Of a stretch of DNA of 64,000 bases, positions 1 through 47,800 are shown piece after piece (within the stretch, counting starts at the first letter, position 1; every line of letters starts with the position of its first letter). Origin of the DNA: a virus; the IMG/VR virus record IMGVR_UViG_3300047281_000098, positions 41,265 through 105,264 of that record. One strand, written 5' to 3'. Made by a program: the position numbers and the translations under genes. The notes under the pieces were generated by a model. The model did not search any database and was not told the origin of the DNA. It saw only the letters and a program-made list of their open reading frames with translations.

Positions 1-1
1 T

Positions 2-1366
2 GAATATGAAATCCCCGGGGCACGATTCTTGCCTGCGGTCCGTCTAGGTAGATGGAACGGTAAGATGAGTTATTTTAGCCTTGGGGGAAGTACTTTCGTA
101 AATCTCCTGGAAGAAATTATCCCTGTACTTGATCGTATTGGATATGACATTGAGTTGGATGATACCAGAGAGTATCGCACTAACTTTGAGTTCTCTCCTT
201 GTACCGAAGACACATTCAAGCACAAGACTTGGCCCGTTGGTCATCCAGTCGCTGGTACACCTATCGTATTGCGTGATTATCAAATTGAACTAATCAATAA
301 CTTTTTAAGTAACCCAGCGTGTCTACAAGAGATTGCGACAGGCGCCGGTAAGACAATTATGACTGCGGCACTTAGTTACAATATTGAGCCATATGGACGT
401 AGTATTATCATTGTCCCTAACACCAGCTTAGTAACACAGACCGAGAAAGATTATATCAACTTGGGGCTTGACGTAGGTGTATACTATGGTGGACGCAAAG
501 AGATTGGCAAGACTCATACAATTTGTACTTGGCAGAGTTTGAATGTGATGTTGAAGAATACTAAGTCAGGTGAAGCAGAAGTTAGTATTCAAGACTTCTT
601 GGAAGGTGTTGTATGCGTTATTGTTGATGAAGTTCACCAAGCAAAAGCAGACGCCCTGAAAACATTGCTGACTACGGTAATGGCTCAGGTTCCTATTCGT
701 TGGGGATTGACAGGTACTATTCCTAAAGCAAAGATGGAAAGTCAAGCTCTATTCGTTAGTCTTGGTCCAGTTATCAACAAGCTATCAGCAAGCACTTTAC
801 AAGAACAAGGTGTACTGGCAAACTGTCATGTCAATGTTGTACAATTACAAGATAAAGTTGAGTTCCCTAATTATCAAACAGAGTTAAAGCATCTGCTGGA
901 AGACTCTGTTCGTTTAGATACAGTAGCAGGTCTTATCAACAAACTGAAAGAAAGCGGCAATACACTGGTTCTAGTTGACCGTGTGAATGCTGGAACTGAA
1001 TTAGTCAATCGTATCCCTGATGCTGTGTTTATCAGCGGTGGTACCAAGGCACAAGTAAGACAAGAAGAATATGACAAAGTGTCCGTGGAGTCTGGATTAG
1101 TGCTTGTGGCGACATACGGGGTGGCAGCAGTTGGTATTAATATTCCTCGCATTTTCAACGTGGTTCTTATTGAACCCGGTAAGTCATTCGTGCGTGTCAT
1201 TCAAAGTATTGGTCGAGGCATTCGTAAAGCAGAAGATAAGGACCATGTTGAAATTTACGACATTACTTCAAGCTGTAAGTTTGCCAAGCGACATTTGACC
1301 AAGCGTAAAGAATTCTATAAAGAGGCCAATTACCCGTTCTCTATACAGAAACTAAATTACAAATAA
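2..1366 (+). CDS. uvsW: SF2 DNA helicase, T4 UvsW-like (5'-truncated by window edge)
   Basis: LRDYQ Q-motif, ATGAGKT Walker A, DEVH, GLTGT, QSIGRGIR motif VI; frame open from position 2. Confidence 0.9.
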   Translation, partial: EYEIPGARFLPAVRLGRWNGKMSYFSLGGSTFVNLLEEIIPVLDRIGYDIELDDTREYRTNFEFSPCTEDTFKHKTWPVGHPVAGTPIVLRDYQIELINNFLSNPACLQEIATGAGKTIMTAALSYNIEPYGRSIIIVPNTSLVTQTEKDYINLGLDVGVYYGGRKEIGKTHTICTWQSLNVMLKNTKSGEAEVSIQDFLEGVVCVIVDEVHQAKADALKTLLTTVMAQVPIRWGLTGTIPKAKMESQALFVSLGPVINKLSASTLQEQGVLANCHVNVVQLQDKVEFPNYQTELKHLLEDSVRLDTVAGLINKLKESGNTLVLVDRVNAGTELVNRIPDAVFISGGTKAQVRQEEYDKVSVESGLVLVATYGVAAVGINIPRIFNVVLIEPGKSFVRVIQSIGRGIRKAEDKDHVEIYDITSSCKFAKRHLTKRKEFYKEANYPFSIQKLNYK

Positions 1367-1369
1367 AGC

Positions 1370-1398
1370 TTGACATTCCCACAGATATAGACTATAAT
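1370..1398 (+). promoter_or_regulatory. sigma70-type early/middle promoter
   Basis: TTGACA(1370-75)-17 nt-TATAAT(1393-98), intergenic. Confidence 0.85.
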
Positions 1399-1419
1399 AC
1401 ATTAACTGAAAGACATCCC

Positions 1420-1920
1420 GTGCGTATATTAACCCTTGACAACACCTTCTATGATTTAGAAACTCTGCCCGAAGAGATTGATGATTTGCGATTCGCAATC
1501 CTAGATAATAGCAATCCACTTAATGTAGACTATCATTACATTCCGCTGATCTTTCTTGAATCATTTAACTCGCCGGCACTTGTTTTGAAGATTGGTAAGC
1601 ATACGATTAAAATGCCAGTTGATTGGCAGATTGTAATCGGTGAGAAAGAACACGGTGATCTGGAGACATTACCACTGACAAGTATTAATGATCGTGGATT
1701 CAATGCGTTTGAATTCAATCCACTATCATCATTCAGTCCATCATTTCTTCCCATTGAAATCGTTGATATCTACAATGATGTTACTTGGTTCGCCCCACGA
1801 CTGAAGAACGGTCAATTTCTGTGTGTACCGATTGAAGATGGATTGAAACCCAAGTGTGTTTACTTTGTTAAAGAAGTAAGCCGTAATTGTGAAATTGTAG
1901 ACTACTCCCAAGCTTTTTAA
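1420..1920 (+). CDS. hypothetical phage protein
   Basis: 166 aa ORF, GTG start downstream of promoter, in operon. Confidence 0.75.
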   Translation: MRILTLDNTFYDLETLPEEIDDLRFAILDNSNPLNVDYHYIPLIFLESFNSPALVLKIGKHTIKMPVDWQIVIGEKEHGDLETLPLTSINDRGFNAFEFNPLSSFSPSFLPIEIVDIYNDVTWFAPRLKNGQFLCVPIEDGLKPKCVYFVKEVSRNCEIVDYSQAF

Positions 1921-1921
1921 T

Positions 1922-2353
1922 ATGAACGAAACATTTTTATTCTTTTCTTATGGTATGCTGACTAACAATGATGTTATGCCTCAGGGTGCTGAAAGACTTG
2001 GCCCAGCTGCCTTGCCCGGATTCGAATGGGAAATGTTATGCTATGCCAATGTGTATGACAAGCCCGGCAACATGGTATTGGGTGTACTTTGGGAAATTGA
2101 TTACGACATCCTGGATGATCTAGATCACCGAGAAGGGTACCCCTCATTCTACGGACGAGTATATGCGGATATTATCCATGAAGGCATTCCTAAGCAAGCT
2201 TGGGTTTATGTCATGACAGAAGATTATCGCAAAATTCTTCGTGATACGCCACCGTCGGCTTCGTATGTCAGAACTGTTATCGAAGGATTCGCAACAGATG
2301 GCATTACCATGCCAAATTTAAATGTAGCTGAACTTGGCTACGAAGCATACTAG
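1922..2353 (+). CDS. gamma-glutamylcyclotransferase (GGCT/AIG2-like) family protein
   Basis: FFSYGMLT N-terminal motif, GVLWEI, LDHREGYP..Y.R. Confidence 0.8.
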   Translation: MNETFLFFSYGMLTNNDVMPQGAERLGPAALPGFEWEMLCYANVYDKPGNMVLGVLWEIDYDILDDLDHREGYPSFYGRVYADIIHEGIPKQAWVYVMTEDYRKILRDTPPSASYVRTVIEGFATDGITMPNLNVAELGYEAY

Positions 2354-2354
2354 T

Positions 2355-2963
2355 ATGGCAACCAAAGTAACTAAAGTAACTAAATCTAAAACTCCAGCTG
2401 ATGAAAAATTCGGAAATCAAGATTTTGATTTATTCGAATCGCTGGCAGCAATGGATAAAAAAGACTATGGATATCTTGAACGCCTGACTGAAGAACAACA
2501 AAAAAAGTTTGTTCCATTTATGATGACTCATTGGATGAGCGCGGTATCAGGTAGCGGTGATGTAGCTGGATACTATGTTCGCAGTGTGGATCATTATGCG
2601 AATACTCATTTGTTCAATGAAGTAGTACAAAAACATCCTAAGCTTCAATGGTTGATGCTGTGCGCTTCAAGTCCTAACTTAGGTAAGCAATTTCACAAAT
2701 GGATTCCCCACCTTAGTGGTAAAGTAAGTTTGTTAAAAGAGCCAGCAAAGACTAAAGATGTCAAAGAGTACTTTAATAAGATTTATCCCAAGACAAGCGA
2801 AGATGCCATCGATGGCGCAGCTAAAGCGTTTGTATCCGATCATAAACGCAAGTGTCATTTAGCTGAACTATTCCCTAATTTAAAGCAAGCTGATATCGAA
2901 ACTCTTAATCAACTTATTACAGATGCCGACATTGCTCAATATGATAAAGACCGCGGAAACTAA
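2355..2963 (+). CDS. clamp loader small subunit, T4 gp62-like
   Basis: KKFVPFMMTHWMS ... HPKLQWLML ... KQFHKWI resembles gp62 family; ATG at 2355 follows the upstream TAG. Confidence 0.55.
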   Translation: MATKVTKVTKSKTPADEKFGNQDFDLFESLAAMDKKDYGYLERLTEEQQKKFVPFMMTHWMSAVSGSGDVAGYYVRSVDHYANTHLFNEVVQKHPKLQWLMLCASSPNLGKQFHKWIPHLSGKVSLLKEPAKTKDVKEYFNKIYPKTSEDAIDGAAKAFVSDHKRKCHLAELFPNLKQADIETLNQLITDADIAQYDKDRGN

Positions 2964-3642
2964 TCCAGTAAAATATGAATGTGAATTTTGTAAGAGAGAA
3001 TTCGCAAAGGAAGCCACGGTATTCAAACATATATGCCAATACAAACATCGTTGGGTTGAACGCGACAAGAAGGGCAATCGTATTGGATTTCAAGCTTGGC
3101 TACAATTCTATACTCGCAACAGCACAAGTAAAAAGAATAGGACCGTTGAAGAATTTATCAAAAGTCCGTACTACAACGCATTTGTAAAATTTGGCAATTA
3201 CTGTGCGGAAATTAATGCGATAAGCGTCAGTAGATTCATTGATTGGTTACTGAAAGAACAGATAAAAATTGACACCTGGTGTCAAGACAGTGTTTATACA
3301 AAGTTTCTGATTGCTTATACCAGAATCGAAGATCCAATGGACGCGATTGTTCGCAGCATTGAAACAACTATTAAATTAGCTGAAACAGAATCAATTCAAT
3401 CACATGATTGTCTACGATATGGAAATGTAAATCGAATTTGTTATGCCATTACCGCAGGGAAGATAAGTCCATGGTTGTTGTATCAAAGCGACAGCGGAAC
3501 AACATTTCTGTCTAATCTAACTTCTGATAATGTTTCAATGATTCTTGATTATATCAACCCAGAGCAATGGGCTATTAAGTTCAAAAGATACCCAGAAATT
3601 GCTGCTGAAGTCAAAGCATTGTTACGAGCAGGTGGCTATTGA
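2923..3642 (+). CDS. hypothetical protein with N-terminal zinc finger
   Basis: YECEFCKREF...KHIC. Confidence 0.7.
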   Translation: MPTLLNMIKTAETNPVKYECEFCKREFAKEATVFKHICQYKHRWVERDKKGNRIGFQAWLQFYTRNSTSKKNRTVEEFIKSPYYNAFVKFGNYCAEINAISVSRFIDWLLKEQIKIDTWCQDSVYTKFLIAYTRIEDPMDAIVRSIETTIKLAETESIQSHDCLRYGNVNRICYAITAGKISPWLLYQSDSGTTFLSNLTSDNVSMILDYINPEQWAIKFKRYPEIAAEVKALLRAGGY

Positions 3643-3667
3643 CATTTAATCCATAATCTGTTATAAT
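3639..3667 (+). promoter_or_regulatory. consensus sigma70 promoter with extended -10, heading the LRW cassette array
   Basis: TTGACA(3639-44)-17 nt-TATAAT(3662-67) with TG extension; ATG 6 nt downstream (leaderless). Confidence 0.88.
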
Positions 3668-3673
3668 ACAGAT

Positions 3674-4009
3674 ATGAAGACATTATACGACCTTGAAAGT
3701 ACGGGCTTACATAGTTTTAAGCGAGGTGAACTAACATTGTTCACTGCTTATAGGCAGTCTGGCAAAAGTATGCTTAATCAATTGTACGGGACAATTATGA
3801 CAAAAGGAAACTTTGAGATAACAGATCAGGCCCCAGTAGATGGAGAGACTTGGTATACTGTTGCGTGTGTCAGTGTCGTATGCGAATGGATGCGTGAGCA
3901 ACCCAAAGAATTGTGGCACGAACACATTGACCTTAGGTGGATTCATTATTCAAACAAGTTTGACATACATGAAAAACTCTATACCGTGTTAGCACTGCGA
4001 TGGAGCTAG
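3674..4009 (+). CDS. LRW-array ORF 1; N-terminal helicase Walker-A-like fragment
   Basis: FKRGELTLFTAYRQSGKSM; ends LALRWS*. Confidence 0.75.
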   Translation: MKTLYDLESTGLHSFKRGELTLFTAYRQSGKSMLNQLYGTIMTKGNFEITDQAPVDGETWYTVACVSVVCEWMREQPKELWHEHIDLRWIHYSNKFDIHEKLYTVLALRWS

Positions 4010-4236
4010 AACTAAGTGAAGGTGGAATACACGGTGCCAGGTATTATATAGTCAGACCCTGGCCATGGGACTCGCACATCACCTGGCTCACAATGGAAGC
4101 ATGGGCTATTGGAACATTCGGACCAGACGGTGGCTCTATTTGGAATAATCTTAACTCACGCTGGTATATGAATAATAGCAAATTCTGGTTTCGCACTGAA
4201 GCGGATCGTACTTTTTTTATATTAAGATGGCAATGA
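4000..4236 (+). CDS. LRW-array ORF 2
   Basis: ends FWFRTEADRTFFILRWQ*; its ATG lies within the preceding CGA-TGG codons. Confidence 0.75.
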   Translation: MELELSEGGIHGARYYIVRPWPWDSHITWLTMEAWAIGTFGPDGGSIWNNLNSRWYMNNSKFWFRTEADRTFFILRWQ

Positions 4237-4433
4237 GAATTCAAAAAGTGTCCAGCAGTGACAACATACATGCTCCTGGCGAATATATGTATAAAATTCA
4301 TGACCACTGTAAAGATAGCGACACCCTGAGGGGGTGGAGAGACGAAATCAAGTTGGATTGTCTCATTTACTCCAATGTTGCTTATTTCAATACCGAAACA
4401 GATGCTATGTTTTTCATACTGAGATGGCAATGA
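4233..4433 (+). CDS. LRW-array ORF 3
   Basis: ATGA overlap; ends FNTETDAMFFILRWQ*. Confidence 0.75.
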   Translation: MRIQKVSSSDNIHAPGEYMYKIHDHCKDSDTLRGWRDEIKLDCLIYSNVAYFNTETDAMFFILRWQ

Positions 4434-4594
4434 CTACCAATTACAGTTGGCAGTACAATGGTGCTGCCCCGTTCATAGATATCATGCAATGGTGCGTTGA
4501 TACTTTTGAAAATGCTAACTGGTCTGCCAACTGGGAAACTTTTAGTTTCAATAATGAAAAAGATTATGTTTGGTTTGTATTGAGGTGGCAATGA
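4430..4594 (+). CDS. LRW-array ORF 4 (minimal 54 aa module)
   Basis: ATGA overlap; IMQWCVDTF...W...FNNEKDYVWFVLRWQ*. Confidence 0.75.
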   Translation: MTTNYSWQYNGAAPFIDIMQWCVDTFENANWSANWETFSFNNEKDYVWFVLRWQ

Positions 4595-4833
4595 GAAAAC
4601 TAATTCCAAATAATATAACTGTTACTGAACAGATTGCGATCCATCGTCAGTTTTTTAATATGGTTGGAAAATGGCGTCGTAGTCAGCAGCCTGTTTTAAG
4701 AAAGGATGAATACTTGCAGTGTTTGGAAGAGGACAGCGGTGTTCGGTGCCAATATAGTAGCGGTGGTCAGTTGACAGGATTCGAAGTTATTGATGAAAAG
4801 ACTTATACCTGGTTTGTGTTGAAATGGACATGA
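4591..4833 (+). CDS. LRW-array ORF 5
   Basis: GAGGTG SD + ATGA overlap; ends DEKTYTWFVLKWT*. Confidence 0.75.
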   Translation: MRKLIPNNITVTEQIAIHRQFFNMVGKWRRSQQPVLRKDEYLQCLEEDSGVRCQYSSGGQLTGFEVIDEKTYTWFVLKWT

Positions 4834-5066
4834 ACGATACTACAAGTTGGATTACCTTTGGTAAAGACCATTATCATTTAAACAGGGTAATGGAGCAGTG
4901 GTGTCACGAACATATCGGGCAAGGTGGATGGGCACACGAAACACCAAAGGCTTGGGGATGTATGATGGGCGATAAGATTTGGGTAATGCATAGTATGTTT
5001 GGTAACACAACTTTTTGCTTTAAAGAAGAAAAAGACTTTATGTGGTTTAAGTTGAGGTGGGCATGA
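4830..5066 (+). CDS. LRW-array ORF 6
   Basis: ATGA overlap; MEQWCHEHIG...FKEEKDFMWFKLRWA*. Confidence 0.78.
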   Translation: MNDTTSWITFGKDHYHLNRVMEQWCHEHIGQGGWAHETPKAWGCMMGDKIWVMHSMFGNTTFCFKEEKDFMWFKLRWA

Positions 5067-5290
5067 GTTTTATAACAGTTTCGCGTAATTTGAACGCTGA
5101 TGAGTTAAGAGATTGGTTAGTCACCAATGTTGGAAAAGAGATCGGCAAGGGAGCTTATGCTAGAAAATGTGGCGACGGATGGGACTTGGATACGACCATT
5201 GGTTACAGGGAAATTCCCGCTGTCTTAAAATGGGGCATAACCATTGATGACGAAGCATTAGCAGTATTTTTTAAATTGAGGTGGGCATGA
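5063..5290 (+). CDS. LRW-array ORF 7
   Basis: SD + ATGA overlap; DWLVTNVG...DDEALAVFFKLRWA*. Confidence 0.78.
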   Translation: MSFITVSRNLNADELRDWLVTNVGKEIGKGAYARKCGDGWDLDTTIGYREIPAVLKWGITIDDEALAVFFKLRWA

Positions 5291-5601
5291 ATAATAAAAC
5301 AATTGAAGATTTTGTAATCCGTTACGGTGCCAAAGTAAATTACGAACAAAGACGCGACTATAATACTTATAATACTATGGGTAGGGCAATGGATTACTAT
5401 TCATTGGATTACTATGGCAATGGTAACAGCATAGTAGGCATTGAACTACCTTTAAAGGCATTTGAGCACTTAGTCAACTCGGATAATCAAGCTGATGTAG
5501 ACTATCAAGCTGGTAAGGAAGAGGCTCGCATTCGTGCTCGGTATCCATCAGTAGCAGAAGCGTATGCTCAATATAAAATGTTACTTGAACTATGCAGATA
5601 A
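5287..5601 (+). CDS. array ORF 8, hypothetical (lacks LRW end)
   Basis: SD + ATGA overlap; ends EARIRARYPSVAEAYAQYKMLLELCR*. Confidence 0.72.
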   Translation: MNNKTIEDFVIRYGAKVNYEQRRDYNTYNTMGRAMDYYSLDYYGNGNSIVGIELPLKAFEHLVNSDNQADVDYQAGKEEARIRARYPSVAEAYAQYKMLLELCR

Positions 5602-5987
5602 TTGAATATATTAAAGACAAGTATCTAACTTGGCGTACTGGCCAAGATAAGCAAACACGCGATTGGAATAAGTGGTTGTATGAAACTGTTCTATTTCGTG
5701 CTGACACGATTGAAAATATGTTTGTGAACTTTAAATACATACTACCAGTGTCCGTAGAGATATTTGATCTTGAAGAACCGTTTGGATGGGCACTGGGCGA
5801 TGACATTCGACAGTATATGTATCCTAACCGAGCATTAGGTGACTGTGCGGTTCATTACTTTGCGCGTGGGTTTCGCCATCAATGGGATGGTCGCTTTCAC
5901 CTTAATGAAATTAGCGGTGGTGATCAAGTGTTTATAGCAACTAACAACAGCAAGGATGCTATGATGATAGCATTGAAGTATTCATGA
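5592..5987 (+). CDS. array ORF 9, divergent LRW-type end
   Basis: overlapping start; ends NNSKDAMMIALKYS*. Confidence 0.72.
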   Translation: MQIIEYIKDKYLTWRTGQDKQTRDWNKWLYETVLFRADTIENMFVNFKYILPVSVEIFDLEEPFGWALGDDIRQYMYPNRALGDCAVHYFARGFRHQWDGRFHLNEISGGDQVFIATNNSKDAMMIALKYS

Positions 5988-6316
5988 ACGATTTACAAAT
6001 AGAAATACACAAGCGCACTATGAAGCTGCTATCTACTGTAATGGCACAATCTATTATAGGGGTGCAACCTATGCCAAATACTGGTATCTTCAATGTAAGG
6101 TTTAGTAAATCTAAATATAAATTCAACCGTGCTAAATGGTATGTAGCAGTGTATAACTACAACTATTATTACGAAGTAGTTGAATGGTGTGCTGAACAGT
6201 TCGGCCCACATCCCGAGCAACCAGATGCTTGGAGTCGTTGGGTACACAAATACGAAGATACGATTCACTTCCGTGATGAAAAAGATTATATTTGGTTTAC
6301 ATTGAGGTGGTCATGA
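5984..6316 (+). CDS. LRW-array ORF 10; N-terminal major-capsid (Gol-like) fragment
   Basis: MAQSIIGVQPMPNTGIFNVR; VEWCAEQFG...FRDEKDYIWFTLRWS*. Confidence 0.78.
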   Translation: MNDLQIEIHKRTMKLLSTVMAQSIIGVQPMPNTGIFNVRFSKSKYKFNRAKWYVAVYNYNYYYEVVEWCAEQFGPHPEQPDAWSRWVHKYEDTIHFRDEKDYIWFTLRWS

Positions 6317-6501
6317 AATTACTGGAAGACTACTCAGTATCATTGAGCGCAGACAGATGGATCAAAATAAAAGAACAATTAACAAAAGTTGAATCTAATT
6401 CATTGGTGTCTATTACTTGGACAGGTCCGTTTGAAAGAACCAGAATATTACGATTTAAATCTGAGAATGATGCATTGATATTTGTATTGAGGTGGAGCTA
6501 A
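6313..6501 (+). CDS. LRW-array ORF 11
   Basis: SD + ATGA overlap; ends FKSENDALIFVLRWS*. Confidence 0.75.
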   Translation: MKLLEDYSVSLSADRWIKIKEQLTKVESNSLVSITWTGPFERTRILRFKSENDALIFVLRWS

Positions 6502-6752
6502 TGATTACATATAAAGTACTGTGGACCGAGTTACCACATATTAAAGTACCGGTATTACACACGGTAATGTATGCTCACAGTACAGATGGAGTAGACGCAA
6601 AATATCAACGAAGTTATAAGGATCATTTAGTAGATGAGTGGTTAAAAGCAAACTGTCGGGCGCCTTACTATCACTCTACCTATCATACAGAAAAGTTTAT
6701 ACAATTTGAAGATGATGAAGATGCTATGTGGTTTTCTTTGAGGTGGTCATGA
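6501..6752 (+). CDS. LRW-array ORF 12
   Basis: SD + TAATG overlap; ends IQFEDDEDAMWFSLRWS*. Confidence 0.78.
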   Translation: MITYKVLWTELPHIKVPVLHTVMYAHSTDGVDAKYQRSYKDHLVDEWLKANCRAPYYHSTYHTEKFIQFEDDEDAMWFSLRWS

Positions 6753-7009
6753 TATATAACGAAATAGAACAAGACATTATAAACAGAGCAGGCAAGGAAC
6801 TATCCAGTGAAATTGACTTCCATGTACTTGCTGATTTATACTCACAAGACGGCTGGACTGAAGTTAATTTGCCGAGACAGCCCAGAGAAACAGTAGTTGA
6901 GATTCTATCCTGGTGTGCGAGTCATAATATTAAGTGCTATGGCAGAGGGCAACGATGGGTGTTTGAGAAGAAGCAAGACGCCTTGTTCTTTAGTTTGAGG
7001 TGGGCATGA
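6749..7009 (+). CDS. LRW-array ORF 13; N-terminal capsid-helix-like fragment
   Basis: EIEQDIINRAGKELSSEIDFHVLADL; ends FEKKQDALFFSLRWA*. Confidence 0.78.
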   Translation: MIYNEIEQDIINRAGKELSSEIDFHVLADLYSQDGWTEVNLPRQPRETVVEILSWCASHNIKCYGRGQRWVFEKKQDALFFSLRWA

Positions 7010-7185
7010 TTGTTACATTACCATATGATCCAGCATGGAAAGCATTAGAATGGGCTAAAGACCATTGTCCTGATTATGTTACTAATGAAGTACACCCCCA
7101 CAAAGCATGGATTCGCCCGATTCAGATTGACTACTTCTTTTCGTCCGAGCGAGATGCTGTATTTTTTAGTTTGAGGTGGGTATGA
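7006..7185 (+). CDS. LRW-array ORF 14
   Basis: SD + ATGA overlap; ends FSSERDAVFFSLRWV*. Confidence 0.78.
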   Translation: MIVTLPYDPAWKALEWAKDHCPDYVTNEVHPHKAWIRPIQIDYFFSSERDAVFFSLRWV

Positions 7186-7427
7186 AATACTTTAGCAGTA
7201 GCGGAGGCAACAATAAACCATACTTTGCCCATCGTATTAAATTACCCAAAGTGGTTAGTGAAGCATATGACTGGTGCTTAGAGTACCCAGATCAAGATAG
7301 ACCCTTTAGAAGATTCCATGTAGAATGGGATCATTATCCAGAGGGAAAATACGGGCATAAAGGTTATGAAATTATTCAATTTGAGTGGGAAGAAGCCGCC
7401 ATTATGTTTACATTGAGGTGGTTATGA
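7182..7427 (+). CDS. LRW-array ORF 15
   Basis: SD + ATGA overlap; ends FEWEEAAIMFTLRWL*. Confidence 0.78.
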   Translation: MKYFSSSGGNNKPYFAHRIKLPKVVSEAYDWCLEYPDQDRPFRRFHVEWDHYPEGKYGHKGYEIIQFEWEEAAIMFTLRWL

Positions 7428-7693
7428 GAGTAGAGTTTAGACAAGGTGTGCCTGACGGATGTGCCCGGTGGCTACGTGAGAATGTTGGACTGGGTAATAT
7501 TGAGGAAGACAGCAACAACAAGAGAACACGGCAGGGGATGATTGACATGCCTGAGTATGCTTGGTTCTATGAGCGGGTAGCAATTATACCCGACGATGCC
7601 TTGAGTCTGCTTTACGAGTCCATTCATTATGTTCCTACTATCACAGTTAAAGATCCCGAGTTGGCTACATTTTTTAGTTTGAGGTGGTTATAA
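7424..7693 (+). CDS. LRW-array ORF 16
   Basis: SD + ATGA overlap; ends KDPELATFFSLRWL*. Confidence 0.78.
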   Translation: MRVEFRQGVPDGCARWLRENVGLGNIEEDSNNKRTRQGMIDMPEYAWFYERVAIIPDDALSLLYESIHYVPTITVKDPELATFFSLRWL

Positions 7694-7908
7694 TGGTAGA
7701 CTGGCTTAATGACAGCTCTGACGAAGTTTATTGCGCTGATTCAGAAGCGTTTGAAAACTTTTTTCATGACTTCTGCCTAAATGGAAAAGCCAAAGGAGCA
7801 GAATGGGGTCCTGACTATTGGGAACAACATGGCATTAAGGTTGTGAACAGTAGAGTAGAATATGATACCCCTGCACATCGCACTATGTTTTTATTGAGGT
7901 GGTTATGA
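7693..7908 (+). CDS. LRW-array ORF 17
   Basis: SD + TAATG overlap; ends YDTPAHRTMFLLRWL*. Confidence 0.75.
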   Translation: MVDWLNDSSDEVYCADSEAFENFFHDFCLNGKAKGAEWGPDYWEQHGIKVVNSRVEYDTPAHRTMFLLRWL

Positions 7909-8168
7909 AGAAACCTAAACCAAAGAAGCCAAAAGCTAAAATACCCAAAGGTGCATTGATAGTTGACTACGGCTTGTATCGTGTAATCCTACCTTATAAA
8001 CACCCGATTGACTTGTATAATAACAAAGAATTAGATATAATATGTGAATGGTGCGATAGAACATTTCCAAAAGATGATTGGAGATGTAGCAGAAGTAGCT
8101 GGCCAGGTCATGTCTACTTTTTAAAAGAAAGCTATCTGACAATGTTTTTATTGATGTGGGCAAAATAA
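7905..8168 (+). CDS. LRW-array ORF 18, Lys/Pro-rich N-terminus
   Basis: MKKPKPKKPKAK; CEWCDRTF...W; ends TMFLLMWAK*. Confidence 0.75.
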   Translation: MKKPKPKKPKAKIPKGALIVDYGLYRVILPYKHPIDLYNNKELDIICEWCDRTFPKDDWRCSRSSWPGHVYFLKESYLTMFLLMWAK

Positions 8169-8169
8169 T

Positions 8170-8610
8170 ATGGTTCAGCTAACTAGACCTGTACCGCCAA
8201 AACCAAGCATGATACCGTGGCCATATAAGTTGCCTCGCAATAAATTAGAAAGACAAGAAGATATGGCTAAATGGGAAATACATAAACGAGCAGGCAATCT
8301 AGTAGAAGCTGCTTGGTGGCACTGGATGCCAGGGGTAACAATTAATGTTAAATGGCCTGTTGGTTTAGTATTTGTGCTTGATGAAAAAGATCGTCGGTGG
8401 GATTGGACCATGGGAACAACCAAGCAATCATTTGACTCGGCGGACCCTAACGACCATTATAGACCTTGGCTTGAAAAGAATGTTGGCAAGCAGGGATGGG
8501 ATTGGCAATGGGGACTTAGAGATAACAACGCAGCAGAGAATAGACTTACTATTAAAGTTAGAACTAAACATGCCAAGTGGGCAACAGTCGCCTCACTTCT
8601 GTGGGGATAA
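8170..8610 (+). CDS. LRW-array ORF 19 (long variant)
   Basis: PWLEKNVGKQGWDW...ATVASLLWG*. Confidence 0.72.
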   Translation: MVQLTRPVPPKPSMIPWPYKLPRNKLERQEDMAKWEIHKRAGNLVEAAWWHWMPGVTINVKWPVGLVFVLDEKDRRWDWTMGTTKQSFDSADPNDHYRPWLEKNVGKQGWDWQWGLRDNNAAENRLTIKVRTKHAKWATVASLLWG

Positions 8611-8613
8611 GTA

Positions 8614-8835
8614 ATGGATTTTGACTTCAACAAGGAAAAGCGATTTATCCTTGTCCCTGCTAATCTTGAGTTTTCAAAACTCATGGTCATACTAACTGAT
8701 ATGGACTATTGGAACACACATTACGAAGCACTCAAAGACTGGTGCGATCTACAACTAGGAACTAATCAAGTTGGGATGACGGTTGAGTTCGACAGTGAGC
8801 AGGACCTGATGTTGTTTATATTAAGATGGAGCTAG
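8614..8835 (+). CDS. LRW-array ORF 20
   Basis: DWC...VEFDSEQDLMLFILRWS*. Confidence 0.78.
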   Translation: MDFDFNKEKRFILVPANLEFSKLMVILTDMDYWNTHYEALKDWCDLQLGTNQVGMTVEFDSEQDLMLFILRWS

Positions 8836-8836
8836 A

Positions 8837-9103
8837 GTGAAACACATATTCAGAAATTTAATTCGCAAAGAGAAATGGACTCTTGTGGAAATTAAGCCGA
8901 CCAAGGACACAATGTGGTCTTCTGGTGGGGAAGATTTAAATCGGCAAGACTATATTAAAATGCGGAATTGGTGCGAACAAACTTTTCACAAAGAAGTATT
9001 CGCCACTTCATTACAATCAGTACACGGAGTTAGTCCTGGATTGAAACGATTCATATTCAACAATCCCGCAGATGCCACGATGTTCAGATTGCGTTGGGAA
9101 TGA
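8837..9103 (+). CDS. LRW-array ORF 21
   Basis: GTG start; NWCEQTF...FNNPADATMFRLRWE*. Confidence 0.75.
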   Translation: MKHIFRNLIRKEKWTLVEIKPTKDTMWSSGGEDLNRQDYIKMRNWCEQTFHKEVFATSLQSVHGVSPGLKRFIFNNPADATMFRLRWE

Positions 9104-9333
9104 CTAAGACCTCTGTTACAGTTTACGGTGCGTATGCTCCAATGCTAAAATGGCTAAGTGACAACATAGGCGCGGAGCTTCACAGTATGCCAATTGTTTT
9201 TTGGTACGGAAAAGGTTGGTTCATGAAACGCACATCTGATATTAGAGAAGAAAGAGTTGGACTCAGGGCTGGCTGGTCAGTTGATTTTGATGATGATCAG
9301 AATGCGACATGGTTCGCATTAATATGGGGATAA
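9100..9333 (+). CDS. LRW-array ORF 22
   Basis: ATGA overlap; KWLSDNIG...FDDDQNATWFALIWG*. Confidence 0.75.
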   Translation: MTKTSVTVYGAYAPMLKWLSDNIGAELHSMPIVFWYGKGWFMKRTSDIREERVGLRAGWSVDFDDDQNATWFALIWG

Positions 9334-9334
9334 T

Positions 9335-9610
9335 ATGGCAATTTTAAATACACACGCACATGGATACTTTAGAGCAGTTGAATACGAGACAATAGAAGTA
9401 ATAGACATGCCTCGCACCTACGGCGCCAAGAAAGTATACACGTATGATTGTAGGGCAAAGTCAGAAGATCCAAGCATTATTGTAAAATGGTGCAGAAGAA
9501 ACTTTGGGCAGCGAGGTGATGGTTGGGACTTTACTTTTCACTCAGACCGTGTTACAATAGAGATTACAAAAGACGAGTTTAAGACAATGTACGAAATGTG
9601 GAAACTATAA
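9335..9610 (+). CDS. LRW-array ORF 23 (divergent)
   Basis: KWCRRNFG.RGDGW...TMYEMWKL*. Confidence 0.72.
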   Translation: MAILNTHAHGYFRAVEYETIEVIDMPRTYGAKKVYTYDCRAKSEDPSIIVKWCRRNFGQRGDGWDFTFHSDRVTIEITKDEFKTMYEMWKL

Positions 9611-10155
9611 TGGCAAATAATGTAATGATAGATTTGGAAACGCTGGACACAAGTCCATTCTGCGTTATCCTCACGATTGGAGCAGTAGTATTCGACCCTA
9701 AGGGCAACGGTATCGTTGACAAGATTGATCTGCGACCTTCAATTGAAGAACAACTTGATATGGGCAGAGTTATCAACGATGAAACTGTTAAGTGGTGGGG
9801 CAATCAAAGTGAGGCGGCGCAACATGAAGCACTAGGTGATCATGACCGAATTCCCTTCAAGGAAGCAATGGAGAAACTTCATAAATTCTGTTGGAACAAA
9901 GGTAACCCCTGGAGTCACGGCGCAGCGTTTGACATTGTAGCAGTGGAAACATCTTGGGCCAGCTTTAAGATGCAACCACCATGGGACTTTTACAAAGTAC
10001 GAGACACACGAACATTGTTTGATGTTACTGGAGTGAATCTTAAAGACGGTGGTTATGTGACAACTCACAAGGCTTCCGAAGATGCGGCACGTCAGGCATT
10101 CATTGTACAGAAGGCGTATAAGATTCTCATTGCCGCCGGAGTAACCCCTCCGTGA
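9610..10155 (+). CDS. DEDDh 3'-5' exonuclease (DnaQ/RNase T superfamily)
   Basis: MIDLET (ExoI), HGAAFD (ExoII), HKASEDA (ExoIII); TAATG overlap. Confidence 0.85.
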   Translation: MANNVMIDLETLDTSPFCVILTIGAVVFDPKGNGIVDKIDLRPSIEEQLDMGRVINDETVKWWGNQSEAAQHEALGDHDRIPFKEAMEKLHKFCWNKGNPWSHGAAFDIVAVETSWASFKMQPPWDFYKVRDTRTLFDVTGVNLKDGGYVTTHKASEDAARQAFIVQKAYKILIAAGVTPP

Positions 10156-10159
10156 AATT

Positions 10160-10414
10160 ATGAAGATTAATCCTAAACTTAAACCAGACGAGTTAGCTCT
10201 TTTATCAGTAGATTCTGCTAGGAGATATTTTCTATTAAACGTTAATACCACTAAACTAGCACCGGACGAAGATTCTATACAGCATGAGTTTGCACTGTGG
10301 TTAGAAACAGAATACTCCTGTAAAATGTGGCGCCCGTATAAAGGAGCAACAAGACGGTTGAAATTTAATGATATGGCTAAATTAGTTTGGTTTAAACTCA
10401 AATATGAAATTTAA
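10160..10414 (+). CDS. hypothetical, outlying LRW-like C-terminus
   Basis: ends LKFNDMAKLVWFKLKYEI*. Confidence 0.65.
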   Translation: MKINPKLKPDELALLSVDSARRYFLLNVNTTKLAPDEDSIQHEFALWLETEYSCKMWRPYKGATRRLKFNDMAKLVWFKLKYEI

Positions 10415-11003
10415 CGGTGACGTTGACATTGATCTAGGAAACAGGGACTTACTGTTGGAACACATTAAGCATATTCCTGCGGCTATGCGTAATATAACAC
10501 CTATAAGAAAGCACTCCACTGGAATTCATATCACTGATATTCCATATGATCCTATCAATAATATCGCGTCAATTGACTATGCCGCTGCTGAATCGCGCGG
10601 GTATTTTAAGCTGGACTTGCTGAATGTTCATGTATATGCTAATGTACGTGATGAGTCACATTTAGTAGAATTAATGCGCGAGCCAGATTGGAATCTACTG
10701 AATGACAGAGAATTTGTAAGTACGCTTATACATTTAGGTAATCATTATCAAAGTATACAGCGTATGATTGAGCCTATCAATAGTATTCCCAGACTGGCTA
10801 TGTTTCTGGCAATGATCAGACCTGCAAAAAAGCATCTGATAGGCTTGCCATGGAGTGAGGTTGCGAAGACTATTTGGGAGAAAGATAGTGACGGCGGGTA
10901 TAGCTTTAAGAGAAGTCACGCAGTTGCGTATTCACAGTTAGTCACTGTACATATGAATCTGTTACAGGAAATGCCTGTTACGAAATTCTTTTCACAAGAG
11001 TAA
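10404..11003 (+). CDS. dnaE: DNA polymerase III alpha (C-family) catalytic fragment, second half of split DnaE
   Basis: DVDID, KHSTGIHI, GYFKLDLL, PINS..LAMFLAMIRP, GYSFKRSHAVAY in DnaE order. Confidence 0.82.
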   Translation: MKFNGDVDIDLGNRDLLLEHIKHIPAAMRNITPIRKHSTGIHITDIPYDPINNIASIDYAAAESRGYFKLDLLNVHVYANVRDESHLVELMREPDWNLLNDREFVSTLIHLGNHYQSIQRMIEPINSIPRLAMFLAMIRPAKKHLIGLPWSEVAKTIWEKDSDGGYSFKRSHAVAYSQLVTVHMNLLQEMPVTKFFSQE

Positions 11004-11358
11004 TGGATCTTCTTTTTGATCGACGCTTGCTTAGGTCTGACATACTACATACGGGGCCGTGTAGTATTACTAAGCTTTTGTTATTGAATGTTCTGATATA
11101 TGGTCTGAAGATTGCCCAATCTTCTTTTAAAAACAAGTTGATAGGGATAAGTCTGTTGCTTTCCCACCACCATATATCACCTAATTCTAGAAATTTCTCT
11201 TTAACTGCTAAGTCCTGTATAGCACCATAATCATATATAGTGGTAACGACATCATCACGATTCTGAACAATTCCCACGTAGTCTTGGCTGGCGTATGAAC
11301 AGATTGTGATGAAAGGGTGATTCTCGCTTAGGCGTTTAAAGAATTCGTTAGGTATCAT
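10978..11358 (-). CDS. hypothetical protein
   Basis: 126 aa ORF preceded on - strand by GATAAATA late-type motif. Confidence 0.7.
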   Translation of the reverse strand: MIPNEFFKRLSENHPFITICSYASQDYVGIVQNRDDVVTTIYDYGAIQDLAVKEKFLELGDIWWWESNRLIPINLFLKEDWAIFRPYIRTFNNKSLVILHGPVCSMSDLSKRRSKRRSITLVKRIS

Positions 11359-11463
11359 TGATAATGTGTATTAAGTTTATTTATCTGCGGAAAGAATTCG
11401 GGTATTATTCCTGAATGACTAAATATAAGATATGCTAAATATAACATTAGAAGCGAATAACAA

Positions 11464-12237
11464 ATGTATGCAACCTCAGTTTTCTCCTATATCCCTCGGC
11501 AAATTGTCGTTGTCTTATCCGGCAACTCGGTAAGGAAATATATGCCCGTTTATGCTAAACCACTCACATTACACAAAGGTGTCGACAACCAGCTGCAGTT
11601 TCAGTTCCTTAATCAAGAGCAGAAACCTGTTAATATCACTGGTGCGGAGATCACATGCCGTATTTTAAACTATCAAGGTAATACTGTGCTTCTTCAGAAA
11701 GCACTGACCCTACAATTAGCAGCCACAGGTATTGCTGCTCTTCAACTAAACGCAGCAGACATTGAGGGTATTGATCCACAAAAATGCTATTACACATTAG
11801 AAATTCCAGTTGGTAGTTTCAATTACCCAGTATTCGTGGATCAGAACGCAGGTGGTCGCGGTGATCTAAACATCGTTAATTCTATTCTACCAAGCTTTGT
11901 GCCGTCACAAAGTGTGTCTATTCCTACTGGGCAATTGTTCCCGAATAACAATTCAAGCGCAAATGCCAATTCAAACGCACTAACATATTTTACCAGTGTT
12001 TGGTCAACTGATGATAATCCAATTTCAACTATTCAAGCAGAATACACTGGGTTTTATGGTAACGTTCAGATTCAAGGTTCCACAATAGTAGACGGTGATT
12101 GGTATAACATTGGAAACACGTATGTCTATTCAAACGTATCCGATACCATTGGATATTCCTTTACTGGATATCATCCATACATCCAAGTACAATTCATCAG
12201 TAATATTGGTGATGTTACTAACATTTTAAGAAGATAG
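11464..12237 (+). CDS. putative virion structural protein (beta-rich)
   Basis: TAAATA motifs upstream; Asn/Thr/Gly/Val-rich. Confidence 0.55.
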   Translation: MYATSVFSYIPRQIVVVLSGNSVRKYMPVYAKPLTLHKGVDNQLQFQFLNQEQKPVNITGAEITCRILNYQGNTVLLQKALTLQLAATGIAALQLNAADIEGIDPQKCYYTLEIPVGSFNYPVFVDQNAGGRGDLNIVNSILPSFVPSQSVSIPTGQLFPNNNSSANANSNALTYFTSVWSTDDNPISTIQAEYTGFYGNVQIQGSTIVDGDWYNIGNTYVYSNVSDTIGYSFTGYHPYIQVQFISNIGDVTNILRR

Positions 12238-44802: not shown

Positions 44803-47800
44803 ATGGCACAAAATAATATTGACTTCGGAACATTTCCGGATGATCCTAGCGCAGACGCGATACGAACAGCATTTCAAAAAGTTCAAGACAACTTTGATCA
44901 AGTATTTGCTGTAACTACCGGAGCATCAGTTACTTCAGTAAATAAGACGCCCGGGGTAGGCATTACTGTTAGTTCTCCGATCGGAGATGTAGTTGTCAGT
45001 GCTAATATCGCATGTGTTCAAGTTAGTACCAGCTCACTAAGTATAGGACGCGGCAGTAACGGTGGAACATCAACTTCAATCACTGCGTCAAGTCAAATTT
45101 TAGTAATTGACATTAATCCAACTAATGTATTCTCAAACAGTTTTGCAGCAGTCGGAGGCGGTTTAGCAAATATTACTGGAAAATTAACAGTAGCTGCTAA
45201 TGCTCAACCAAACATTACATCAGTTGGTACTTTGACTACTTTAGCAGTATCAGGCAATATCTCGGCTGGAAATGTTGCTGCGACCACATTTACTGGTAAT
45301 TTTACTGGTAATGCCACAACAGCGGGTACAGTAACCACTGCTGCGCAGCCAAACATAACATCAGTTGGTACATTAACATCATTAGTAGTAACCGGTAACA
45401 TCACATCAGGCAATGCTAATTTAGGCAATTTAGCACGTGCTAACTTTATTCAAGGGACATTAACCACTGCTGCGCAGCCAAACATCACAAGTACAGGTAC
45501 ACTGTCTTCGTTAGCAGTAACTGGTAACGTAACAAGTGGAAATGCTAACTTAGGTAACTTGTTAATTGCTAACTTCCATCAAGGAACATTAACAACGGCT
45601 GCTCAACCAAATATTACATCAGTTGGTACTTTAACTGCTTTAGCTGTTACGGGAAATGTCACTTCAGGTAATGCTAACTTAGGTAACTTGTCAATTGCTA
45701 ACTTCATTCAAGGAACATTAACAACTGCTGCTCAGCCAAATATCACGTCTGTTGGAACATTAAGTTCTTTGGCAGTAACAGGTAACATTTCAGGTGCTAA
45801 TCTAACTGGAACTCATTATGGCGCAGCAACCGGACTAACAGCAATTCCGGGTGCTAATGTAACTGGTACAGTAGCTAATGCGACATACGCAGTAAGCTCA
45901 GGCACGGCCGGTAGTGCTACTACTGCAGGTACGGTAACAACGGCTGCTCAACCAAATATTACATCAGTTGGTACGTTAACTGCTTTAGCTGTTACGGGAA
46001 ATGTCACTTCAGGTAATGCTAACTTAGGTAACTTGTCAATTGCTAACTTCATTCAAGGAACATTAACAACTGCTGCTCAGCCAAACATCACTTCAACAGG
46101 TACTTTAACTGCGTTAGCAGTAACTGGTAATATTTCTGGTGCGAATATCACAGGTACTCATTACGGTGCAGCTACTGGACTAACAGCAATTCCGGGTGCT
46201 AATGTAACTGGTACAGTAGCTAATGCGACATACGCAGTAAGCGCGGGGACAGCGGGTACAGTAACAACTGCTGCTCAGCCAAACATCACTAGTACAGGAA
46301 CTTTAACTGCTCTTGCAGTAACTGGAAACATTACATCAGGTAACGCCAACTTAGGTAACTTGTTAATTGCTAACTTCATTCAAGGAACATTAACAACTGC
46401 TGCGCAGCCAAACATCACAAGTACAGGTACACTGTCTTCGTTGGCAGTAACTGGTAACATTTCGGCTGGTAATGTTTCTGCTACGACTTTTACAGGGGCG
46501 TTCACTGGAAATTCAACTACAGCAGGTACAGTAACAACTGCTGCGCAACCAAATATTACATCAGTTGGTACGTTGACTTCTCTAGCAGTTTCAGGTAATA
46601 TTACGTCGGGAAATGTTTCAGCAACAACTTTCACCGGTGCGTTAACTGGTCTTGCTTCAAGTGCGACAGTAGCTGCTTCAGCAAACGCCGTAGCAGGGGC
46701 GAATGTAAGCGGGCAAGTAGCAAACGCATTAGTAGCCGGCACTGTGTATACTGCGGCACAACCAAACATCACTAGTACAGGTACTTTAACTTCGTTATCA
46801 GTGACCGGCAATATATCCGCAGCAAACGTAAATGCAGCTACATTTGGAGCACATAACGGAACAGTCGGAGCATCTACTCCTAACACAGTGGCAGCAACTT
46901 CGATAACAGCTACGACAACAATAGCTGCTACTGGTAACTTGTCAGGTGCTAATATAAACACCGCTGGTGTTCTATCTGTCACGGGTAACGCTAATGTCGG
47001 TAATTTAGGTACTGCTGGATTAATCGTTGCAACTGGTAATATCACCGGTGGAAATTTAGTTACTGCTGGAAATTTATCAGTTACTGGTAATGCAATTATT
47101 ACTGGAAATCTATCAGCCGCAGTATTCACGGGCGCTGGAACTGGGCTTACTTTCTTGCCAGGTGCTAATGTATCTGGCACAGTAGCTAATGCGACATACG
47201 CAGTAAGTTCAGGTACAGCAGGTAGTGCTACTACAGCGGGTACAGTAACAACTGCGGCACAACCAAACATCACTTCAACTGGTACTTTAACTGCGTTAGC
47301 AGTCACTGGCAATATCTCCGGTGCTAACATCAATGGTACTTTCTATGGCGCAGCAACTGGACTAACTTCAATCCCGGGCGCGAATGTAACTGGTACTGTA
47401 CCACTTGCTGCAAGTGCTACTACAGCGGGTACAGTAACAACTGCGGCACAACCAAACATCACTTCAACTGGTACTTTAACTGCGTTAGCAGTCACTGGCA
47501 ATATCTCCGGTGCTAACATCACAGGTACTCATTACGGAGCAGCTACTGGATTAACTTCAATCCCTGGCGCGAATGTATCTGGTACAGTAGCCAATGCGAC
47601 ATACGCAGTAAGTTCAGGTACAGCGGGTACAGTAACAACTGCAGCACAACCAAACATCACATCAGTTGGTATATTAACATCATTAGCAGTAACCGGCAAT
47701 ATATCAGGTGCTAATGTAACTGGTACACATTATGGGGCAGCTACTGGATTGACTTCAATTCCTGGCGCGAATGTATCTGGTACAGTGGCAAATGCGACAT

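Follow-up and report, generated by a model that had tools for sequence, protein, structure and literature searches.

How can a long row of small, fast-evolving genes stay expressed, and at the same time open to recombination, when hardly any sequence is dedicated to either task? This question is raised by an array of 23 small paralogous genes (positions 3674–10414, + strand) in a stretch of viral DNA of 64,000 nucleotides, hereafter the window, which corresponds to bases 41265–105264 of the 105-kb IMG/VR virus record IMGVR_UViG_3300047281_000098 (about 30% complete according to CheckV). The window is a fragment of an uncultured jumbo (giant) myophage related to the Rak2/121Q, PA5oct and Atu_ph07 assemblage. 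The array proteins share a C-terminal module that closes with Leu-Arg-Trp (LRW), and from sequence analysis we consider it probable that the codons of this tripeptide serve as a protein motif, as the Shine–Dalgarno (SD) sequence of the next gene, and as the crossover point at which gene cassettes are exchanged.

A conserved nonamer at the gene junctions

The nonamer TTGAGGTGG was found 11 times in the window, always on the + strand (starts at 4580, 5052, 5276, 6302, 6487, 6738, 6995, 7171, 7413, 7679 and 7894), whereas shuffled sequences contained 0.40 copies on average and 4 at most. The whole 105-kb record holds 11 forward copies and no reverse copy, and every one of them lies within the array. 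In every case it encodes, in frame, the Leu-Arg-Trp of a small open reading frame (ORF), a single variable codon separates it from the stop, and it ends 2 or 5 nt ahead of an ATG that overlaps the stop codon; nine of these junctions read NNATGA and two read TAATG (6496–6503 and 7688–7695). The motif occupies eight consecutive gene ends, from 6302 to 7894. An earlier note on this DNA had described this arrangement, with 11 ORF ends at which Leu-Arg-Trp is written in the same way, eight of them consecutive, and a GAGGTG a few nucleotides before a stop-overlapping ATG, and our counts agree with it in full. A Chi-like or endonuclease site was also considered and rejected, since the nonamer is absent outside the array on both strands of the 105 kb.

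The copies are predicted SD sequences for the genes that follow them. The junction at 4580–4588, formed by the LRW codons of the gene at 4424–4594, would serve the start at 4591 (predicted duplex with the anti-SD of −10.7 kcal/mol), the one at 5052–5060 the start at 5063 (−10.8 kcal/mol), and the one at 5276–5284 the start at 5287, which belongs to a gene outside the family (−10.4 kcal/mol). The copy at 6302–6310 is the predicted SD for the start at 6313 (−14.1 kcal/mol) and also the left boundary of a mobile cassette described below; the right boundary of this cassette is the TAATG-type junction at 6487–6495, the predicted SD for the start at 6501 (−10.3 kcal/mol). The junctions at 6738–6746, 6995–7003, 7171–7179 and 7413–7421 are predicted to serve the starts at 6749, 7006, 7182 and 7424 (−14.1, −10.4, −10.4 and −12.5 kcal/mol, respectively), and the last copy, which begins at 7894, the start at 7905 (−12.5 kcal/mol). 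The values at the motif junctions thus range from −10.3 to −14.1 kcal/mol versus a median of −2.4 kcal/mol at 87 other starts, and the predicted pairing is the strongest in the fragment. Since AGGAG or GGAG precedes several other starts of the record, the host evidently uses SD sequences.

The nonamer accounts for 11 of the 16 Leu-Arg-Trp ends in the array. Other codons were located at CTGCGATGG (3995–4003), where the A-TG-G of the Arg and Trp codons forms the next start (4000; −2.0 kcal/mol); at TTAAGATGG, present at 4222–4230 with an extra in-frame ATG 6 nt ahead of the ATGA start (−4.0 kcal/mol) and again at 8821–8829, where the next start is a GTG at 8837, 8 nt further on; at TTGCGTTGG (9089–9097), followed by an ATGA start at 9100 (−3.3 kcal/mol); and at CTGAGATGG (4419–4427), all on the + strand. 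The AGA, CGA and AAA variants yield xxA-TGG, that is, an ATG within the Arg and Trp codons; at 4000 this ATG is the start of the next gene, and at 4227, 4424 and 4824 it provides a second in-frame start, located 6 nt ahead of the ATGA. The codons of the tripeptide are paired, TTA going with AGA and TTG with AGG. The array therefore contains two types of junction, with and without an SD.

The codon choice at the motif departs strongly from that of the rest of the record. In the 82 other ORFs, TTG makes up 19% of the Leu codons and AGG 4% of the Arg codons, so that only about 0.8% of Leu-Arg pairs would be expected as TTG-AGG. To avoid circularity, relatives of the array were mostly retrieved through a conserved 239-aa gene located upstream of it and through the exonuclease gene, and not through the motif. 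This set comprises 84 loci with 279 family hits, 236 of them with a recognisable end, which form 137 clusters at 70% identity; codons were counted using one end per cluster. When a start codon lies within 12 nt, the Arg of LRW is encoded by AGG in 70 of 96 ends (73%), compared with 4 of 14 (29%) when it does not (Fisher p = 0.0018), and the full GAGGTG is present in 61 of 96 versus 2 of 14 (p = 0.0008). Elsewhere in the same family genes, AGG represents 8% of 418 Arg codons. A position matrix of the ends showed G at the third base of Leu in 79%, A at the first base of Arg in 89% and G at the third base of Arg in 80%; this enrichment falls on exactly the bases that compose GAGGTG.

Could the codons be fixed simply because neighbouring paralogs were duplicated in tandem, or homogenised by gene conversion, in the recent past, with no selection for a ribosome site? 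The presence of an identical nonamer in eight consecutive genes agrees with this explanation, as does the fact that the 3′ ends form a direct-repeat family of 38–56 nt with 60–82% identity, and that FFSLRW endings recur with similar DNA. Nevertheless, the paralogous proteins are only 15–40% identical, so their synonymous sites should be saturated, and neighbouring genes differ in the codons that adjoin the nonamer. Moreover, the same choice is repeated in the 137 dereplicated clusters, from phages only 55–70% identical, and AGG falls to 29% where no start follows. Given these data, we regard duplication as a highly improbable cause of the codon bias.

These results support the idea that the LRW codons are under selection at the DNA/RNA level, as the earlier note had proposed on the basis of their fixed synonymous choice; the enrichment of TTG and AGG over genome codon usage that it had suggested examining is evident in the window, and that of AGG also among the relatives. 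The dual role of the nonamer as coding sequence and predicted SD is well supported statistically, and from it we infer translational coupling along the array. The claim that each cassette supplies a ribosome-binding site to whatever follows it also held at the level of prediction, including ahead of the non-family gene at 5287–5601. The same note had pointed out that the cassettes at the edges use other codons and keep LRW; the three variants that it listed were all located, CTGAGATGG being an additional one, and the retention of the tripeptide under alternative codons indicates that the peptide itself is also under selection.

Gain, loss and transfer of cassettes

If the junctions are also places of exchange, the differences between close relatives should end there. 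The locus L009 is 96% identical to the window in DNA over 1–6301 and 90% over 6492–7691, and lacks exactly two of its cassettes, 6313–6501 and 7693–7908. For the first, the switch point lies within the LRW codons; as identity falls from 96% to 90% exactly at the 6313 junction, this junction is also a mosaic boundary that separates two histories. The second cassette (71 aa, + strand) corresponds to a 215-bp indel between the two copies of a 13-bp direct repeat, each consisting of TTGAGGTGG plus TTAT (7679–7691 and 7894–7906, + strand), and at this site L009 shows the left flank of the window up to the repeat and the right flank after its second copy. No relative of the cassette 7693–7908 was found among viral contigs. 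An outlying family cassette at 10160–10414 (+ strand), located between the exonuclease gene and a DNA-polymerase-fragment gene, is absent from L092, which is 97% identical; this 252-bp indel has a 4-bp TGAA microhomology at the stop/start overlap.

Considering all close pairs in the set, 10 of 11 independent array indels involve whole cassettes, with 4–34 bp shared at the junction, and in most events 9–34 bp are shared exactly at the crossover. The crossover point varies: in different events it falls within the LRW codons, within TGGTCATGAG, within ATGA together with the first codons, or within TGAA alone. With the reservation that some rows of the count duplicate one event, 8 of 12 left ends of homology blocks in arrays start 9–29 nt before the end of the Trp codon, and in 12 of 14 cases the right end falls between −8 and +5 nt relative to it. 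Of 25 cassette clusters, 11 had two or more different left neighbours. These observations support the view that the junction is the place where cassettes recombine, and the breakpoints of gain and loss, which the earlier note had predicted to lie in the junction motif, are not random with respect to it.

A clear case of transfer between phages is provided by the mobile cassette at 6312–6495 (+ strand; gene 6313–6501, 62 aa). Absent from L009, it is 100% identical over 6312–6495 in L093 (92 kb), L095, L096 and L097, and 98.5% identical over 6295–6495. L097 belongs to an independent contig of 359 kb, Ga0208916_10000001, that joins in one assembly both contexts seen in the other three. The remaining array genes of this 359-kb phage share only 47–68% protein identity with those of the window, its nearest alignable flank is 81% identical in DNA, and the cassette has different neighbours there. 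The identity starts at the upstream nonamer and stops on the last G of the downstream nonamer. In L091 the cassette occupies another position of the array, directly before the orthologue of 7905, with 84% DNA identity. The presence of an identical cassette in diverged phages, its shifted position in L091 and its absence from L009 indicate a recent horizontal exchange of a gene of about 190 bp. A scan for more near-identical cassettes in divergent backgrounds (at least 96% identity, both ends internal) returned only 6313–6501.

Two further observations concern these contigs. L093 (at its end), L095 (at its start) and L096 (at its end) break inside the shared cassette or exactly at its end, a pattern that would be expected if the assembly graph were tangled by an identical segment that two different phages of one sample have in common. 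In addition, L091 carries at 7564–8565 an ORF of 334 aa between the orthologues of 7905 and 8170, which is absent from the window.

In the mechanism that we propose, the nine bases would have two selected jobs, and a third would follow from them. The first would be to encode the Leu-Arg-Trp with which the last helix closes in a small domain, the C-terminal module of every array protein. In the second, the third-base G of Leu together with AGG would spell GAGGTG(G), which would pair with the 3′ end of 16S rRNA and stands 3 nt (5 nt for the GAGG core) ahead of the stop-overlapping ATG; each gene would hand ribosomes on to the next, and translation could run along the 6.7-kb operon. Since the paralogs are so divergent as proteins, the junction is the only DNA common to the cassettes, with a core of 9 bp that reaches up to 13–34 bp when its neighbours are included. 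Recombination between cassettes, or between co-infecting related phages, would then resolve at the junction, and a single gene could be deleted, inserted, relocated or exchanged while all reading frames and ribosome sites stay intact. The likely engine would be the T4-type recombination machinery of the phage itself (UvsX, UvsY, a gp32-like single-stranded DNA-binding protein and a UvsW-like helicase), which is plausible because of the genes that it carries: a UvsW-type helicase gene is located at 29–1363, and UvsX-, UvsY- and gp32-like genes lie close by, upstream of the window. The exchange might proceed through template switching during replication or through excised mini-circles.

We also weighed a true site-specific cassette system, in which a dedicated recombinase would use the nonamer as its core site by an integron-like mechanism. 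The transferred cassette is indeed bounded exactly by two nonamers, and with about 30% of the genome in hand the recombinase could be encoded elsewhere. However, a search with PF00589 of the 105-kb record, which covers this portion of the genome, detected no tyrosine recombinase or integron integrase, the controls being positive. The overlapping genes leave no room at the array junctions for attC hairpins (about 57–141 bp), none of which were found, and there are no local inverted repeats. Furthermore, crossovers occur at differing points of the junction. Outside the arrays, small genes are gained or lost between repeated consensus sigma-70 promoters (30–53 bp) or terminator hairpins (25 bp), which fits homology and not a specific site. 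A dedicated recombinase is therefore very unlikely. Without integrase or attC, with varying crossovers and with shuffling at promoters and terminators, homology-guided recombination over short homologies fits best, and the microhomology recombination named as a candidate by the earlier note is consistent with the 4–34 bp shared at variable crossover points and with the use of repeats outside the arrays.

Several points weigh against assigning all three functions to the LRW codons. Regarding the ribosome site, the upstream Phe codon TTT (85%) and the first base T of Leu (80%) are also enriched, and an SD explains neither; the 16S 3′ tail used to calculate the pairing may not be that of the host; and about a quarter of the coupled junctions have AGA or CGN with the ATGA still present, which means that the SD is not indispensable and that termination–reinitiation may be enough. 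With respect to recombination, nine bases are very short for strand exchange of the UvsX type, and the cross-phage transfer rests on one cassette, though it is seen in four assemblies. Several events share 4 bp only (TGAA or ATGA), such as those between the window and L092 and between L076 and L074, and a 127-bp deletion that distinguishes L063 from L064 has a mid-gene breakpoint. Purifying selection retains whole-gene indels anyway, so the clustering of breakpoints is partly survivorship.

Taken to its extreme, this last argument leads to an explanation in which the motif has no mechanistic part: illegitimate events would be random everywhere, and the survivors would be whole-gene changes. 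The precise indels with only 4 bp in common and the surviving L063/L064 deletion are in its favour, and the clean breakpoints must be due in part to purifying selection, which keeps genes intact. As a sufficient cause we find it unlikely, since in most events 9–34 bp are shared exactly at the crossover, an identical nonamer is found at both ends of the cross-phage transfer, and the indels outside the array also fall between repeats of 20–53 bp, which shows that these phages recombine at short repeats generally.

The operon and its protein family

A profile hidden Markov model (HMM) built from the array ORFs matched 23 ORFs at 3674–10414 (E from 1e-7 to 3e-19), which encode proteins of 56–146 aa that are only 15–40% identical to each other. 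Most neighbours are joined by an ATGA overlap; the genes overlap by 1–4 nt or stand a few nucleotides apart at most. Two foreign genes lie inside the array, the non-family gene at 5287–5601 and the exonuclease gene at 9610–10155. A consensus sigma-70 promoter (TTGACA, 17-nt spacer and TG-extended TATAAT) is present at 3639–3667 on the + strand, with 12 of 12 consensus positions; judged by consensus match only, it is the sole perfect sigma-70 site in 2800–11600. No convincing terminator and no comparable second promoter were detected within the array. With a single promoter and neither promoters nor terminators inside, the array reads as one early operon with no intergenic space, and appears to constitute a single unit of 6.7 kb. 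Given that the promoter ends 6 nt before the first array ATG, the mRNA of the first gene would be leaderless or near-leaderless. A TG-extended TATAAT that ends 5–7 nt before an ATG, with no SD, was seen at several genes (3639–3673, starts 12282 and −1113, and others), which suggests that leaderless early transcripts occur in this phage.

The exonuclease gene and a gene for a 199-aa DNA-polymerase fragment (phrog_11778) span 9610–11003, with a family cassette between them in the window; the two genes abut directly in L092, and a cassette-sized indel distinguishes L076 from L074 at this same site.

The C-terminal module of the family consists of W-[CL]-x4-G, then W, and then F-x-F-x2-E-x-D-A-x2-F-x-L-R-W. 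In an AlphaFold model (pLDDT 85.6, alignment of 115 sequences), LRW closes the last helix of a beta-alpha-beta-beta-alpha domain. There are 318 sequence homologues, and a profile search retrieved 7,639 representative clusters at 50% identity, all of them small proteins; among the best matches listed, the domain is at the C-terminus or a few residues from it in nearly all. More than 116 viral contigs contain the 21-nt junction pattern, and among the matches listed a single contig holds up to six copies. Scans of ten array proteins against Pfam and PHROGs gave nothing significant and no family model, and Foldseek found no match with E < 1 in the PDB. With VIA-align, Z values of 6.4 or less to KH-like and secretin-N-like beta-alpha-beta-beta-alpha domains were obtained, which is within the background range, and the BFVD matches were uncharacterised phage proteins only. 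Since this very large family is covered by neither Pfam nor PHROGs and no structure is clearly related to it, the array offers a route into the uncharted early proteins of jumbo phages.

Neither a megablast search with the array nor a tblastn search with gene 5984 matched any of 50,697 phage records. The flanking genes are present and the array absent in the E. coli phage 121Q, and PA5oct and Atu_ph07 have distant family members, with the LRW junction absent; no cultured model of this junction was found among these three phages. A further observation concerns the N-terminus (5984–6103) of gene 5984–6316. Homologues of this array protein (P0003, P0004, P0015 and P0039) match positions 2–59 of the Pfam model of the Gp23 major capsid protein above the gathering score (E from 3e-7 to 2e-12), the window copy being below detection. 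These matches suggest that a widespread subfamily combines a capsid-protein fragment with the LRW module.

Regarding the phage itself, its tail sheath is 45% identical to the counterparts of Atu_ph07 and PA5oct, and it encodes a DnaB-like helicase, a primase and an exonuclease. The structural region contains a single ORF of 3094 aa at 44803–54087.

Relation to known systems

The closest precedent is given by the PeSLs (promoter-early stem-loops) of T4-type phages, cassettes of about 100 bp with a sigma-70 promoter and a stem-loop terminator that mediate indels and mini-circles (Arbiol et al. 2010, PMC2839356; Comeau et al. 2014, PMC4122927). In both cases, a hyperplastic region holds small early genes that are not essential and are flanked by short conserved expression signals; where close phages differ by an indel, the crossover lies in the signal (here, twice in L009, in 10 of 11 array indels and at the edges of the motif-bounded transferred cassette); an inserted gene is expressed at once, which for the array is a prediction; and the phage carries T4-type recombination genes. 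The relatives of this phage also gain and lose other small genes between repeated promoters and terminator hairpins; such small-gene indels, PeSL-like in appearance, were seen at L057 5562–5787, L041 1608–1796, L029 8567–8902 and L023 167–485. The two systems differ in that PeSLs are intergenic and carry transcription signals, whereas the array junctions contain neither promoter nor terminator, and consist of a translational signal of 9–13 bp (SD plus stop/start overlap) within a shared coding/SD motif of 9–34 bp. This signal is itself part of the coding sequence, where it doubles as a conserved peptide, and all the cassettes belong to one protein family in one operon. Mini-circles have been shown for PeSLs, and for the array they are a possible route.

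Translational coupling through an overlapping stop and start, with the SD inside the upstream gene, is textbook knowledge for bacterial and phage operons. The array follows this pattern in its nine ATGA and two TAATG overlaps, with the predicted SD located 5–9 nt upstream in the preceding ORF. It departs from it in that codons of a motif conserved throughout the family make up the SD, which recurs at up to 11 junctions in succession and locks the protein and RNA constraints together across a whole gene family.

The earlier note had also described an integron-like plug-in architecture without integrase or attC sites. The likeness stands as far as a single upstream promoter (one perfect sigma-70 match), ordered promoterless cassettes and the gain or loss of single genes are concerned, and no integrase was found in the 105 kb. 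It is an analogy only, since the array is not an integron in the strict sense: it lacks integrase, attI and attC, its cassettes overlap and are all paralogs, and its crossover points vary. Another parallel concerns the ip gene cluster of T-even phages, for which Repoila et al. reportedly proposed in 1994 that the shared codons of the capsid-targeting sequence, together with upstream signals, permit swapping. There too, a short conserved coding segment of otherwise unrelated small genes would provide the homology for recombination, but the shared segment is said to be N-terminal and associated with a promoter, whereas here it is C-terminal and is the predicted SD of the next gene.

A broader interpretation, which we put forward only tentatively and consider doubtful, is that the arrays are a library of interchangeable early proteins that act in host takeover or against host defences, in which a constant C-terminal scaffold may carry variable N-terminal modules. 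The coding SD junction would then be a minimal, enzyme-independent "att site", and single genes would move in the form of mini-circles from one co-infecting jumbo phage to another, to be translated as soon as they arrive. If true, thousands of uncultured phages would possess a translational equivalent of integrons and PeSLs.

On the reading that we favour, in which the LRW codons would combine protein core, ribosome site and crossover point in one tripeptide written with one set of codons, hardly any dedicated sequence would be needed to keep a long and fast-evolving gene array expressed and open to recombination. The array would also illustrate cleanly, in nature, how an overlapping RNA function can fix synonymous codons; its ends, where the constraint has lapsed, provide a built-in control. 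The array junction thus appears to be a reduced, translational version of PeSL-type modular shuffling combined with ordinary translational coupling, and with it the idea of mobile regulatory cassettes in T4-type phages, framed for transcription signals, would come to include a translational signal embedded in coding DNA.

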